This document shows positions 5,144 to 34,601 of a stretch of DNA of 64,000 bases, piece after piece (within the stretch, counting starts at the first letter, position 1; each line of letters begins with the position of its first letter). The position numbers and the translations under genes are program-made. The notes beneath the pieces were generated by a model that did not search any database, was not told the origin of the DNA, and saw only the letters and a program-made list of their open reading frames with translations. Origin of the DNA: a virus; the IMG/VR virus record IMGVR_UViG_3300048620_000016; one strand, given 5' to 3'.

Positions 5144-5766
5144 AGGCACACACGATGCGCCGCAAAGTGCGCGAGGGCGGCCTCGCCCATCGTCTGCTGA
5201 CGATCGCCACCGACAACCACCACTGGTACGACTGGGGACACCGCCTGATGACGCTGGTCGGCCGCTGGGACGGCACCGGCGACTACAGCATGCCGCGCGG
5301 CCGCGACCTCTGGTACCGCTTCGACTCCGACAATGAGACGAGCGGCAAGATCATCACCACGCACCGCTACACCGACGTCCGAGACATGCCGGACGCGGGC
5401 TGGAAGGTCTTCGACGTCCAGGACGACGGACACACGGTCATGCTCGGCTGGTGGGGCGACCGAATCCGCTTCTACGGGCTCAACAGGCGCGAGCTGGCAC
5501 TGTTCCGCCGGTGGGATCTCTGGGAGCGCCGCGCACGCGGTGAGTGGTTCGGCATTCGACGCTGGCTCTACTGCAAGGGTTTGCACGCCGCAGTGCACCT
5601 CCGGAAGCCGTTCGCGTGCAACACAACGCCCCCGCCGGGGTCGGGCGGCTACTCGCACTGGCACTGCGAGCTGCGCGGCAAGCACACCGAGCACCGCTTC
5701 CGCGCGTACGTATGGGTCGATGGTCGCGTAACGCACCGACCGAACGAACAGAAGCCGACGCGATGA
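5140..5766 (+). CDS. Hypothetical Trp/His-rich protein
   Basis: ATGA coupling; RBS caggagc upstream. Confidence 0.7.
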   Translation: MKAHTMRRKVREGGLAHRLLTIATDNHHWYDWGHRLMTLVGRWDGTGDYSMPRGRDLWYRFDSDNETSGKIITTHRYTDVRDMPDAGWKVFDVQDDGHTVMLGWWGDRIRFYGLNRRELALFRRWDLWERRARGEWFGIRRWLYCKGLHAAVHLRKPFACNTTPPPGSGGYSHWHCELRGKHTEHRFRAYVWVDGRVTHRPNEQKPTR

Positions 5767-6143
5767 CGCACACGGTCACCGTGACGACGAGGGTCGAAGA
5801 CGAAGGTACTCCCAACGAGTTCCGCGTCATCGAGTCGATCACGTTCAAGTGCGACGCCCCTCAGGACGCCGACTGCCGACGCTGGCCCGACTGTGGGTGC
5901 GAGTCATGGGAGTGGAACGAGGCGGGCACGCACGACCAGAACGAGCACGAGCGCGTTCCTGGCCAGAAGTGCTGGCTCACCGACTGGTTCGACGCGGAAG
6001 GCGCGATCTACGTGGGTGACGACTACGACGACATGCGCGCCGACTGCGTGCCTGCCATCGACCGTACCGGCGAGATCACCGTGGCGTGGAGCGACGAGTG
6101 GCCCGAGTGGACGTTCCTACCCGAACCGGGCGATCCCTCATGA
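5763..6143 (+). CDS. Hypothetical Cys/Trp/Asp-rich protein, paralog A
   Basis: Coupled start; near-identical to 7477-7863. Confidence 0.85.
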   Translation: MTHTVTVTTRVEDEGTPNEFRVIESITFKCDAPQDADCRRWPDCGCESWEWNEAGTHDQNEHERVPGQKCWLTDWFDAEGAIYVGDDYDDMRADCVPAIDRTGEITVAWSDEWPEWTFLPEPGDPS

Positions 6144-7366: not shown

Positions 7367-7476
7367 CCATGGCCTACGACTGCAAGCCGTGCGAGCGCCC
7401 GGAGCCGCACGATGACCACTTCCACGGGCGCTCATGGTGCCTCGGTCTCGGTTCCCAACGAACAGGAGCAGGAACG

Positions 7477-7863
7477 ATGACGCACACAGTCACCGTCACG
7501 ACGAAAGTCGAAGACGAAGGAACTCCCGACGAGTTCCGCGTGGTCGAATCAATCACGTTCAAATGCGACTCCCCGCCCGACGCCGACTGCCGCCGCTGGC
7601 CCGACTGCGGATGCGAGTCGTGGACTTGGAACGAGGCAGGCACGCACGACGAGAGCGGGCACGAGCGCATTCCCGGACGGAAGTGTTGGCTCACCGACTG
7701 GTTCGATGCCGAGGGCGCGATCTACGTGGGCGACGACTACGACGACATGCGCGACGACTGCGTGCCTGCCATCGACCGGAGCGGCGAGATCACCGTCGAG
7801 TGGCGCGATGAGTGGCCCGAGTGGACGTTCACCCCCGAACCGACCGGTTCGGAGTCTGAGTGA
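7477..7863 (+). CDS. Hypothetical Cys/Trp/Asp-rich protein, paralog B (alternative in-frame start at 7369)
   Basis: RBS caggagcaggaacgATG; colinear with 5763-6143. Confidence 0.85.
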   Translation: MTHTVTVTTKVEDEGTPDEFRVVESITFKCDSPPDADCRRWPDCGCESWTWNEAGTHDESGHERIPGRKCWLTDWFDAEGAIYVGDDYDDMRDDCVPAIDRSGEITVEWRDEWPEWTFTPEPTGSESE

Positions 7864-30410: not shown

Positions 30411-30758
30411 GTGGCTCTGAATGACGCGATCCTCAACATCGCCGCGGAGGCGATCGCCGACGCCGCCATGTAGGCGGCGATCCACACCGCCGCGCCCAAC
30501 AGTGCGGGCTCCAACCAGTCCGCGGCCGCGCGTGAGCTGATCCCGTGGGCGGCAGCGACAACCGGTGACCTGTCGTTGACGGGACCGATCGACTTCGAGG
30601 GCGGCGCCGCCTCGGGTGCGGCTACGCACCTGGGGTTCTGGTCGGCGCCGACCGGCGGCGTGTTCTACGGCTTCGTCCCTCTGACTGGTGACCAGTCGTT
30701 CAACGCGGCGGGGGAGTACACGGTCAACTCGATCAGCCTCAACGGCTCCGCGGCCTGA
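30411..30758 (+). pseudogene. Tail-fibre-module small protein interrupted by in-frame TAG at 30471-30473
   Basis: MALNDAILNIAAEAIADAAM*AAIHTAAP...THLGFWSAPTGGVFYG...; protein-like on both sides of the stop. Confidence 0.75.
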
Positions 30759-32800
30759 TGGCGACCCCGTCTCTCGGCTCGTACCTGTTCTCCCGAGTGA
30801 CGGGGCTCAGCCGCTCCGTGGACGTGTCCGCGCTCCCTGACGGGTCGTGGATGCTCGCCACCGTCTTCCAGGGCGGGTCGAACGTCCTCACCCTCACCCC
30901 GCCCGCGGGCTGGGTGCCGCTCGTTGCTCGCCAGCCGATCGGCACCAGGTCGTTCACGGTCTGGGGCAAGGTGAAAGCGTCGGGCGACGCGACGATGACC
31001 TGGTCGACCTCAGAGTCCGCGCCGATCTCCCTCGTCGTCGCACATGGGCCCGGGCCGTGCCGTCCGGTCACTGAGTGGGTCGTGGGCCTTGTGGGCGTCC
31101 GCTCGGCCGCCAACGCTATCGGCGGCCAGTCTGTGCAGGCAGGAACCGACACCACCACCGTGGCACCCGCGATCACCGTGCCGGCAGAGACACGTGTCAT
31201 GACCGCATCGCTCGAGGCGACGACGGCGGCGGAGTCCAACATCGTCTCCGTGTCCGGTGCGACAGCATGGGCGTACATCAACCCCACGAACGTGACCGAG
31301 TCAACCTTCCTCGCGTCCGTCGACAAGACGACTGCCGGCGCAACCGGCCCGGTCACCACGACGTACGTCAACACGCAATCAGCGAACGCCGGCGCCGTGC
31401 AGATCGGCATCCCCGCTCCCGCCGCGACCGCGGCCGCGGGAACCGCATCCGGAGGCTTCACCTTCACGGCTGCAGCGGCCGGCGAGATCTCGCCCCTCCC
31501 CGGATTCGACTCGATCGACCAGGTGCTCCACACCCCCGGAGCCACCTGGGCGCACCGAGGCGGATCCGCGAACTGGCCAGAGATGACCGACTACGCCTAC
31601 ACCCGCGCCGCAGCGCACGGGTACGGGGTGCTCGAGTTCTCCTGCGCACGCACCTCCGACGGATGGTGGTTCGGGCTCCACGACGCGAACCTGGACCGTA
31701 CGTCCGGGCTCAGCGGATCACCGAGCGTGTCGACCATGACACGCGCCGCCGTCGAGGCCTACCAGATCACGCTCAACGCAGGCGGGAACCCCCAGCCCTA
31801 CTACGGGCTGATCGAGTTCCTGCAGAAGTGGACCCAGACCCACGTCGTGGTCATCGACCCGAAGAACGCCCTGTCGTTCTCGGCCGAACTGCTCGACCTC
31901 ATCGAGCTCCACGTACCGGATGCGCAAGACCGAGTCGTCATGAAGTTCTTCGGCGTCGGAGGTGGCGCACTCACGTTCGCGGACCTGTGCCGCGCCCGCG
32001 GGTTCACCACCTGGGGGTACTTCTACCAAGCCGACTACGACTCCGGAGCGCTCGCCGCCAACCATGCCCGATGGGACTGGTTGGGGATGAACCTCGCGGC
32101 CACCACCGCGTGGACGGGCGGGACGTACCCGGCGATCGGATCCTACGGTCAGCCCGTCGTCGCGCACATCATCCAGTCGCAAGCCGAGTACGACGCCTCG
32201 ATCGCCAAGGGCGCGACCATGGTGCAGGTCGGGAACGTCGCCGGCGTCCAGCGCGTCGGGGTCGAATCGGTGATCCCTGACGGCGACGCATCCGCGTCGT
32301 GGATCTTCCTGGCCACCGCAGCGGGCAGCAGACGCGCCCAGGGCACCGCAGGCGCCGCTCTCGCGTACGACGCGGCCGCGTCTGGCACCACGAGCCGCAC
32401 TGGGTCGGCAGAGGCCGCCTGGGCGGTCGAGGGGGCCGCTGCCGGGTGGCGGCAGTCGCAGGGCGAGGGTCACGCGTCGCTCACGTTCGAGCTCGTCGCG
32501 TCGTCCTCGTCGACGTCGGAGGGATCCGCCGCCGGCGCACTCACCCTCACGCTGTCGGCCGAGGGTGCGACGGTGACGGCCGGCGCCGCAGCTGGCGCGT
32601 TCGTGATCGCCGCGGCCGCGGATGGGTCAGCGCCGGATGGGCAGCGCGTCGGTGTCGCGTCCGGGTCGTGGACCTTCGACGTTCACGCCTCGTCGACGGC
32701 CGTCGCGATCCCGGACCGGCCGCAGCTGGTCGGTAGCATGCCGCGGCACACACTGGCCGGCTTCGCCCCGGACCGCACGTTGAGAGGAGCACGCGGATGA
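30758..32800 (+). CDS. Putative virion protein with glycerophosphodiester phosphodiesterase (GDPD) domain
   Basis: WAHRGGSANWPEMT...VLEFSCARTSDG...LHD; beta-rich N-terminus; Ala/Gly/Ser repeats at C-terminus. Confidence 0.8.
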   Translation: MATPSLGSYLFSRVTGLSRSVDVSALPDGSWMLATVFQGGSNVLTLTPPAGWVPLVARQPIGTRSFTVWGKVKASGDATMTWSTSESAPISLVVAHGPGPCRPVTEWVVGLVGVRSAANAIGGQSVQAGTDTTTVAPAITVPAETRVMTASLEATTAAESNIVSVSGATAWAYINPTNVTESTFLASVDKTTAGATGPVTTTYVNTQSANAGAVQIGIPAPAATAAAGTASGGFTFTAAAAGEISPLPGFDSIDQVLHTPGATWAHRGGSANWPEMTDYAYTRAAAHGYGVLEFSCARTSDGWWFGLHDANLDRTSGLSGSPSVSTMTRAAVEAYQITLNAGGNPQPYYGLIEFLQKWTQTHVVVIDPKNALSFSAELLDLIELHVPDAQDRVVMKFFGVGGGALTFADLCRARGFTTWGYFYQADYDSGALAANHARWDWLGMNLAATTAWTGGTYPAIGSYGQPVVAHIIQSQAEYDASIAKGATMVQVGNVAGVQRVGVESVIPDGDASASWIFLATAAGSRRAQGTAGAALAYDAAASGTTSRTGSAEAAWAVEGAAAGWRQSQGEGHASLTFELVASSSSTSEGSAAGALTLTLSAEGATVTAGAAAGAFVIAAAADGSAPDGQRVGVASGSWTFDVHASSTAVAIPDRPQLVGSMPRHTLAGFAPDRTLRGARG

Positions 32801-33090
32801 TCATCGTCAAGACGGGCGATCGCTACCCGATCGAGTTCACCGCGAACATGCCTCTCGCAGACGCGGAGGTCAGGTTGTTCGCCACGCGCCTCCCCTCGGG
32901 CGTCCGCCTCGAGCTCGAGTGCACCAAGCTGGAAGCCACCGGCTCCGTCCAGCACGTGCTCACAGGCGAGCTCGAGCCTGGCGACTACGGCGTCGAGCTC
33001 GAGGTCACCACCGGCACAGTGGAAGTGACCTTCCCAACACCGCAGGACCCCTCGGAACCGCCGTACGAGCTGCTCCGAGTGCTCGACTGA
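32797..33090 (+). CDS. BppU-N-like (baseplate upper) small protein
   Basis: VKTGDRYPIEF...GDYGVELEVT...TFPT pattern. Confidence 0.6.
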   Translation: MIIVKTGDRYPIEFTANMPLADAEVRLFATRLPSGVRLELECTKLEATGSVQHVLTGELEPGDYGVELEVTTGTVEVTFPTPQDPSEPPYELLRVLD

Positions 33091-33091
33091 C

Positions 33092-33136
33092 AAGCGCCCC
33101 CTCACTGGCTCTCACGCCACGGAGGGGGCGCTTTCG
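33092..33136. terminator. Terminator between convergent late operon and minus-strand gene
   Basis: aagcgccccctc / gagggggcgctt plus inner tggc/gcca stem, then ttc. Confidence 0.8.
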
Positions 33137-33142
33137 TCGGTA

Positions 33143-33514
33143 TCAGGGGATCTCCTCGACGGCGCCTGACCACACCCAGCAGCGGTGTGCAGTGTCGGCG
33201 ATAGTGAACTCGATGCCGACCGCGTCCGCCGTCCACCGCGCCGCGACCGCTTCGACCTGCAGCGGCACGTCACCGAACCGCACCCACGCTCTCACCTTGC
33301 GGCGGGGCTTCGGGTCGATCGTCAGGGGAACCTCGTCGAGGCGGAGCTCCTGGCCAGAGAGGGTCTGCAGCTTCGCATTGCGCGAGACGGTCTGCATCAC
33401 CCGCTCGTTCATCTGCCGGTCGATCGAGTCGGCGTATCGCCTGTTGGTCCCCACAGCCAGGTTCCCCCTTCCCCGGCCGGCATCCATGCTAGACGGCCAC
33501 CTCCGACACACCAA
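33143..33514 (-). CDS. Hypothetical protein (true start probably downstream, near MGTNRRY)
   Basis: GTNRRY...VRAWVRFG...ARWTADAVGIEF...CWVWSGAV; protein-like. Confidence 0.7.
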   Translation of the reverse strand: MVCRRWPSSMDAGRGRGNLAVGTNRRYADSIDRQMNERVMQTVSRNAKLQTLSGQELRLDEVPLTIDPKPRRKVRAWVRFGDVPLQVEAVAARWTADAVGIEFTIADTAHRCWVWSGAVEEIP

Positions 33515-33563
33515 CGCCCCGCCAGGCTCTCACCGGTATGGTGACGCCAGGCGGGGCGTTTTC
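33513..33563. terminator. Long hairpin downstream of the tRNA
   Basis: aacgccccgcc/ggcggggcgtt, ggc/gcc and tcacc/ggtga stems. Confidence 0.7.
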
Positions 33564-33591
33564 GTGCGTCAGGCGGTGCTGGGGATCCCTG

Positions 33592-33664
33592 TGCCCCCGG
33601 CGCGACTCGAACGCGCAACCGTCGGATTAGAAGGCCGATGCTCTATCCATTGAGCTACGGAGGC
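33592..33664 (-). tRNA. trnR: tRNA-Arg(UCU), complete 73 nt, CCA not encoded
   Basis: GCCTCCG acceptor, GCTC/GAGC D-stem, CTTCTAA anticodon loop, GCGCG-TTCGAGT-CGCGC T-arm. Confidence 0.96.
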
Positions 33665-33672
33665 TGACCGCT

Positions 33673-34527
33673 CTACGCTACCCGTCGGCCCGACTTCTCG
33701 GGAACTCGCACGAGCGGCAGCTGCAGCATCGCGGCCTCGATCGTGGAGTCGCGGACGCGCGCGTACTTCTGCACGGTCTGCTCGTCGCTGTGCCGCATCG
33801 CGGCCGCTACGACGGTCGTAGACGCGCCGGCGTCGATGAGCTCGGTCGCGAACCACGCCCGCATCTGGTGTGGCCGGTGCGCGACCCCCGCACGCTTGAA
33901 AGCCTTCGAGAGCACGTTCGACACGTTCGACGCGGTCACGTGCTCGCCGGGCCGCGTGGGCGAGGCGAACAGCCACCCATCCGTCCGCCACGTCTCGAGG
34001 TGCTCCCACACGAGCGGGTGGATCGGCCGCCAGACTTCCTTCCCCGCCTTCGCATCCTTCGACAGGATCCGCCGCCGCGACCAGTCGATCGAGCTCCCCG
34101 ACACTGCCGCGATCTCCGCAGCACGGAACCCCTGGTAGGAGTACAGCAGCACCCACAGGCGGGTGCGCCGGTAGATCCCGGAGTGGAGCACGTGCTCGAT
34201 GTCCTCCGTCGTGACAGGGTCGGGCTCCGACTTCGGCACCCGCACCTTTGGGAGCTTCGCCGCCGGGTTGTCGAGGCGGAACTCCTCGTCCTGCATCCAG
34301 GTGAAGAACCCGTATAGGAACGACTTGAAGTGCGCGCGGGTGGATGCCTTGATCCCGGGGCGTGCGAGGTCCCGGATCAGGTCGTGACGGGTCACGGTCA
34401 TCAAGGTCTTGTCGGTGCGGCGGAGCATCGCACGCAGCGTGTACGTGCGTTCTCGGATGCTCTTCTGAGTCGATCCGGATGCGATCTGAAACGCGGTCCA
34501 GAAGTCGATATAGGCGTCGTCGTCCAT
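33673..34527 (-). CDS. int: Tyrosine integrase/recombinase lacking an N-terminal arm-binding domain
   Basis: GFRAAE, KAGK, HQMR, RH, KY catalytic residues; RBS ggagaagctATG; 284 aa. Confidence 0.95.
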   Translation of the reverse strand: MDDDAYIDFWTAFQIASGSTQKSIRERTYTLRAMLRRTDKTLMTVTRHDLIRDLARPGIKASTRAHFKSFLYGFFTWMQDEEFRLDNPAAKLPKVRVPKSEPDPVTTEDIEHVLHSGIYRRTRLWVLLYSYQGFRAAEIAAVSGSSIDWSRRRILSKDAKAGKEVWRPIHPLVWEHLETWRTDGWLFASPTRPGEHVTASNVSNVLSKAFKRAGVAHRPHQMRAWFATELIDAGASTTVVAAAMRHSDEQTVQKYARVRDSTIEAAMLQLPLVRVPEKSGRRVA

Positions 34528-34601
34528 AGCTTCTCCAGTTCCGGGGAGGTCTTTGGAGACTACGGACAACCAGCCGGCCGTCGCGGGGGGAGCGGCCGTG
34601 A

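Follow-up and report, generated by a model that had tools for sequence, protein, structure and literature searches.

In tRNA-dependent lysogeny, as described for mycobacteriophage Fionnbharth (K4), for phages of clusters L, K6 and X and for the Gordonia clusters CQ2/DL, a tyrosine integrase uses a short core of 8–17 bp within a host tRNA gene, the junction rebuilds no tRNA, and the phage carries a tRNA of matching isotype, which in Gaia lies downstream of int (Guerrero-Bustamante and Hatfull 2024, PMC10865867). Deleting the cognate phage tRNA leads to clear plaques and blocks viable integration (PMC10865867). The integrases of these phages are lambda-like with an arm-binding domain, attP is intergenic where it is described, and the targets are tRNA-Lys(UUU), tRNA-Ile2 and tRNA-Leu(CAA). 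Integration-dependent immunity is treated in that study as a separate system; it is known from the mycobacteriophages BPs, Brujita and Charlie as well as from clusters G, I, N and P (PMC3694055, PMC4557955). In the BPs type, int and rep point leftward and a small HTH gene rightward, attP lies in the 3' part of rep, and Rep is truncated by integration; in the usual form attP carries the tRNA's 3' half and the host gene is rebuilt.

The two mechanisms are thus known apart, and we found no paper in the open-access literature that describes both in one cassette. We report here a phage genome in which they appear to be united. In the reading that we favour, with a probability of about 0.87, the complete tRNA-Arg(UCU) gene behind int is the replacement for a host tRNA-Arg(UCU) gene that integration splits, as part of a combined lysogeny switch that leaves the lysogen dependent on the phage copy. 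The nearest precedent for such a union is a pair of tandem prophages of Mycobacterium abscessus, prophiT36-2a/2b, which likewise combine integration-dependent immunity with an impaired tRNA-Thr at attL, speculated to be complemented by a prophage tRNA-Thr (PMC9934374). That case differs in its 40-bp core with two acceptor-stem mismatches and in the tRNA coming from the second prophage, and it is a single case rather than a self-contained, conserved cassette.

The window (the whole stretch of DNA that was analysed, 64,000 nt) is a 36,246-bp unit written 1.77 times, with positions 1–27754 exactly equal to 36247–64000, and hence represents a circular genome; anything found in either of these segments turns up twice. 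Its genes for terminase, portal, major head, tape measure and tail fibre identify it as a tailed temperate phage in the free or excised form. Window positions 33000–35400 were compared with four runs, two of DNA (X1 and X2) and two of RNA (X3 and X4), and all runs with phage sequence are 2025 algal metagenomes. X1 and X2 are possibly the source of the window; their junction contigs nonetheless constitute information that is absent from it. X3 and X4 were used as contigs only, and X3, which contains both att junctions too, may include DNA.

A complete 73-nt cloverleaf directly behind int had been proposed from the sequence, and it holds: ARAGORN calls a tRNA-Arg(TCT) at 33591–33664 on the minus strand, and Rfam RF00005 matches 33592–33664 across the whole model (65.1 bits, E 2.5e-13). 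The surroundings are also as first described, with exactly 8 nt between the integrase stop codon (33673–33675) and the first base of the tRNA, a TAGCGT hexamer (33680–33675) that shares the T of that stop codon, and a long hairpin downstream (~33502–33573; z = -5.9 against shuffles; Table 1). A strict scan did not call this hairpin; judging by a T run on the plus strand, it probably serves at least as terminator of the oncoming tail-gene operon. Behind it lies a minus-strand ORF (33143–33514) with an uncertain start and with no match in Pfam or PHROG, which could be a gene expressed in the lysogen.

Table 1. Features of the integration and immunity region, in window coordinates.
Feature	Position	Strand	Remarks
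Long hairpin separating the tRNA from the convergent tail-gene operon; probable (bidirectional) terminator	33502..33573		Fold z -5.9; predicted function
Phage tRNA-Arg(UCU) gene, 73 nt, CCA not encoded	33592..33664	-	ARAGORN, Rfam; 83% identical to host gene
-10-like box TAGCGT, 10 nt before the tRNA	33675..33680	-	Position kept in 30/35 family members; putative promoter activity
Tyrosine integrase, 284 aa, C-terminus ...RRVA	33673..34527	-	PF00589; 77% identity with Int of Microbacterium phage Min1
Immunity repressor, 112 aa in free phage, 94 aa in prophage	34602..34940	-	phrog_2328, E 4e-18
attP crossover core TAATCCG	34657..34663	+	Same as host tRNA immediately 3' of the anticodon centre; contig branching
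Decayed tRNA 3' half in repressor gene, acceptor strand lost	34657..34693	+	Identity to host 17/22 as far as the T loop, 23/37 in all
Small MerR-type HTH gene, divergent, cro position	35049..35267	+	PHROG matches: excisionase/transcriptional regulator

Contigs of both DNA runs cross 33000–34663 and show neither a difference nor a joint or loose end at the phage tRNA. They branch about 1 kb away, at 34651 and 34663, inside the repressor gene, and in X1, X2 and X3 the loose ends carry the 5' half of a tRNA-Arg before 34651 and the 3' half behind 34663. In X1, attP, attL and attR stand side by side (unitig depth 76, 107 and 65, against 207–213 for the phage arms); the X2 listing gives only the junction contigs. 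Since within 34651–34686 the attL record has one letter unlike the window and the attR records have none, the crossover must lie to the right of 34656, that is, within TAATCCG. The prophage junctions, whose location the preliminary description had suggested as a check, are attL and attR contigs that join the phage to the halves of a different, host tRNA-Arg(UCU). The reassembled attB is a valid tRNA-Arg(UCU) by ARAGORN, mismatched to the phage gene at 11 positions, with a gap besides. Exact copies of its central 36 nt are found in at least five Microbacterium genomes among the matches listed in a pattern search of 151 genomes, a survey with a chance background whose matches are not a copy-number count. 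As the host gene differs from the phage gene and its centre recurs in this genus, misassembly of host DNA does not explain the phage tRNA, and the host very probably belongs to Microbacterium.

Integration splits the host tRNA-Arg(UCU) gene, and the acceptor stem cannot form at attL; the gene is not rebuilt there because the phage copy of the tRNA 3' half has decayed. At its default threshold ARAGORN finds no tRNA at attL or attR, and calls attB; when relaxed (-ps80) it calls an 80-nt tRNA at attL, yet it then calls spurious ones at attP too. As in tRNA-dependent lysogeny, then, a tyrosine integrase has its attB in a host tRNA gene, the core is short (7 bp), the junction rebuilds no tRNA, and a full cognate phage tRNA is present, downstream of int as in Gaia. 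The locus differs from the published systems in its integrase, which is too short for an N-terminal arm-binding domain, in an attP that lies in the repressor gene, in its Arg-UCU target and Microbacterium host, and in the decayed tRNA half that is still visible in attP. Neither Arg-UCU nor Microbacterium is listed in PMC10865867, and its Table 2 includes neither Min1 nor cluster FF.

The same recombination alters the repressor. At attL the codons GAT TAC become GAT TAG, with a host-derived TAG, so that the protein stops at residue 94 (...PSPD-stop) and loses an 18-aa tail (...RAAS). This repressor is homologous to those of Babsiella, of Gordonia phages and of prophi62-3, whose record notes attP within the repressor. 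The position of the core within the repressor ORF, the leftward int and rep, the rightward cro-like gene and the integrase without an arm-binding domain all follow the BPs type, although the rightward gene may instead be an excisionase. The locus departs from that type in having the tRNA as a fourth gene and in its 18-aa tail ending in AAS. Neither viral Rep (RAAS) nor Int (RRVA) ends in a canonical AA, and many relatives do. By analogy with BPs, the short repressor is presumably the stable, active form, the long one being subject to tail-dependent proteolysis. An imperfect inverted repeat between the rep and cro genes (34980–35033) is a likely operator or divergent promoter region.

The mechanism that we propose starts from what the junctions in the samples record: Int joins the 7-bp core within the repressor gene to the tRNA-Arg(UCU) gene of the host, which is left split and, the phage's 3' half having decayed, is not rebuilt at attL, and the same event brings the TAG into the repressor frame and removes the C-terminal tail. 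The shortened repressor would then be stable and active, as in BPs. The host is expected to have a single UCU tRNA as sole reader of AGA codons, as Fionnbharth and the comparative data suggest, and the lysogen would depend on the phage tRNA; this dependence is modelled on the tRNA-deletion phenotype in PMC10865867. Since the prophage separates int from the repressor promoter, the tRNA would rely for its transcription on a -10 box of its own.

The preliminary description had held the tRNA to be an expressed gene co-regulated with int. What holds of this is that the tRNA is a phage gene with a promoter-like box of its own; co-regulation in the lysogen is unlikely. A TAnnnT box ends 8–14 nt upstream of the tRNA in 30 of 35 family members (4.5% in shuffles), and in 10 of the 35 the tRNA lies on the strand opposite to int. 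The hexamer singled out in the preliminary description is thus conserved, and it speaks for a tRNA independent of int. Furthermore, if the BPs layout applies, integration leaves the repressor promoter at one end of the prophage and int with the tRNA at the other, so that the tRNA would need its own promoter. A strict sigma-70 scan of 33000–35400, which requires a -35 box, found no promoter, and the evidence for the -10 box thus rests on its conservation. Read-through from int into the tRNA early in infection is possible. One X3 contig (33591–33798) spans the int 3' end and the tRNA; since this run has both att junctions and may contain DNA, we do not regard the contig as proving expression or co-transcription of int and the tRNA.

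Integrase homologues were taken from genomes and from viral and metagenome contigs, and 44 distinct relatives with an integrase identity of 39% or more and with downstream DNA were counted. A tRNA-Arg(UCU) lies behind int in 34 of them and a disrupted one in 1, with none in the remaining 9; the tRNA-bearing relatives group as one well-supported clade in a quick tree. At 13 loci attR could be seen upstream of int, and all 13 run from the 3' half of the host tRNA through GATTAC into an orphan repressor tail, whose end is AA or similar in most. Microcella alkaliphila and a Citricoccus each have both junctions on a single contig, with an attL that is not a tRNA and a truncated prophage repressor (...PSD-stop); in Cryobacterium fucosi attR is seen and the host 5' half stands at a contig end. 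In the Microcella, Citricoccus and Cryobacterium lysogen genomes, which are draft assemblies, no intact tRNA-Arg(UCU) other than the phage copy was found. Two close relatives without the tRNA (L001 and L046) are located elsewhere, in genomes where the host tRNA-Arg(UCU) is intact beside tRNA-His.

Microbacterium phage Min1, whose Int is the closest to that of our phage, and the Arthrobacter cluster FF phages (Nandita, QuinnAvery and others; Int 42% identical) have a homologous integrase with tRNA-Arg(UCU) behind it, and upstream the same GATTAC core together with what is left of a T loop, within a repressor-like tail. Cluster FF differs in that its tRNA is turned towards int and there is usually a second integrase; the genome announcements place the tRNA-Arg(TCT) between the integrases or beside them, with no attP or function (PMC13097055, PMC12628072). 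The Min1 record (EF579802.1, L013) has the same cassette at 1–1024, where the match to int falls into two pieces and an annotated CDS (1–771) overruns an unannotated tRNA-Arg(UCU) at 42–117. Min1 was reported to integrate in plasmid pMN1 (PMC9030533), which a chromosomal tRNA target does not explain.

A sister clade, at 32–42% identity, targets tRNA-Val(UAC) and has its repressor truncated likewise. Where a tRNA-Val(UAC) lies behind int, attL is broken in 4 of 4 prophages, and where it is absent the host tRNA is rebuilt in 6 of 6, as in the usual BPs form; these are raw prophage counts that ignore kinship, with the tRNA-positive rows in at least three places. In one further case attR was found together with a phage tRNA of the same type, tRNA-Lys(UUU); its attL was looked for and not found. 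The tRNA half within the repressor gene is intact in the six Val prophages, is left with its T loop in our phage, Min1, G271 and Nandita, and is gone in Microcella and Citricoccus. The direction of change between a long core and tRNA dependence was left open in PMC10865867. We consider the chances about even that this armless-integrase family reached an immunity switch and prophage dependence in one recombination several times (Arg-UCU, Val-UAC and probably Lys-UUU), and that the decay of the tRNA half in the repressor gene records the order, with the long core first and decay after tRNA capture.

The alternative closest to our reading has the same integration geometry, with a phage tRNA that is only helpful: the host would survive the loss of its rare UCU tRNA through a second copy, residual activity of the attL hybrid or dispensability of the gene, and the phage copy would restore fitness. 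AGA is rare in these GC-rich genomes, and the cell might do without the host tRNA, much as Streptomyces can without bldA. In a few Microbacterium genomes there are 2–3 UCU-like matches among those listed, over the chance background of the survey, and the attL hybrid retains the anticodon and the T loop and scores at the relaxed threshold. That hybrid cannot form an acceptor stem, however, the association in the Val clade is clean even if counted without regard to kinship, and no prophage with a split host UCU tRNA lacking a phage replacement was present among the genomes examined. We regard a phage copy of this kind as improbable, and dependence of the lysogen as the better account.

Far less probable is a role in lytic translation, through codon supply or defence against tRNA nucleases, with the gene behind int by chance or co-transcribed with it. 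The shared strand, the distance of 8 nt and the single RNA-run contig over both genes would fit such a role, but the tRNA isotype always equals the integration target (Arg-UCU, Val-UAC, Lys-UUU) and the tRNA is opposite to int in 10 of 35 members. Codon compensation was rejected as well: int and the repressor have no AGA codon by exact count, so that codon supply for int is not the reason, and the structural genes have 0–2 each in a crude ORF set. The preliminary description had also raised the possibilities that attP is the whole tRNA, duplicated by integration, or that the tRNA is host DNA mis-joined in assembly. The TAATCCG 7-mer is indeed common to the phage tRNA and the host gene, and tRNA-targeting attP sites often adjoin int. 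The contigs of the two DNA runs, however, pass over the tRNA without a break and have their only branch points in the repressor gene, where the crossover lies, the host and phage genes differ, and the virion genomes of Min1 and cluster FF have the same layout. Both possibilities are already refuted for the main integration route, and we give them next to no weight. Replacement of the split host tRNA remains the reading that we favour.

If this reading is true, one recombination turns immunity on and at the same time renders the cell dependent on its prophage. It would give a concrete function to lone phage tRNAs annotated without explanation, as in Min1 and Arthrobacter cluster FF, and would add a new integrase type, isotype and host family to those with tRNA-dependent lysogeny. 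The predicted phenotype is directly testable, since there are cluster FF phages, and a lysogen of QuinnAvery, on Arthrobacter globiformis B-2979 (PMC13097055). Prophage finders that seek long tRNA repeats would either take the phage tRNA for the boundary or miss the boundary, and vectors for integration built from these phages would require the tRNA. Natural pairs of long-core and short-core phages make the evolution of tRNA dependence directly comparable.

Several minor observations concern the tRNAs themselves. The TAATCCG 7-mer within the phage tRNA (33623–33629) is inverted relative to the attP core and ~1 kb from it. Int could in principle invert the int segment between the two, or a second phage could enter the prophage tRNA; the four runs contain no joints of such an inversion or of tandem integration, a comparison that rare events could escape. 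The tRNA-Arg(UCU) of the Cryobacterium prophage (L003, 10891–10963) has an anticodon arm without the TAATC core and could not be a target; tRNAs of this type are resident chromosomal genes in many Microbacterium genomes among the matches listed. Across Microbacterium species the chromosomal tRNA-Arg(UCU) is strikingly variable, with some variants near-identical to phage copies, and exchange with phages is possible. In another relative (L114, 3890–4530) an inverted, abnormal tRNA-Arg(UCU)-like sequence stands behind int, with a tRNA 3' half ~560 bp on, which looks like a rearranged or interrupted phage tRNA.

Elsewhere in the phage genome, the early region has two 389-bp copies that are 87% identical (5740–6128 and 7454–7842), and direct repeats of ~68–82 bp with 72–81% identity, at 36171–36422 (wrapping to 1–198), lie within a 315-aa ORF. 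A 680-aa gene with a glycerophosphodiester phosphodiesterase (GDPD) domain is found at the end of the structural/lysis region (30758–32800).
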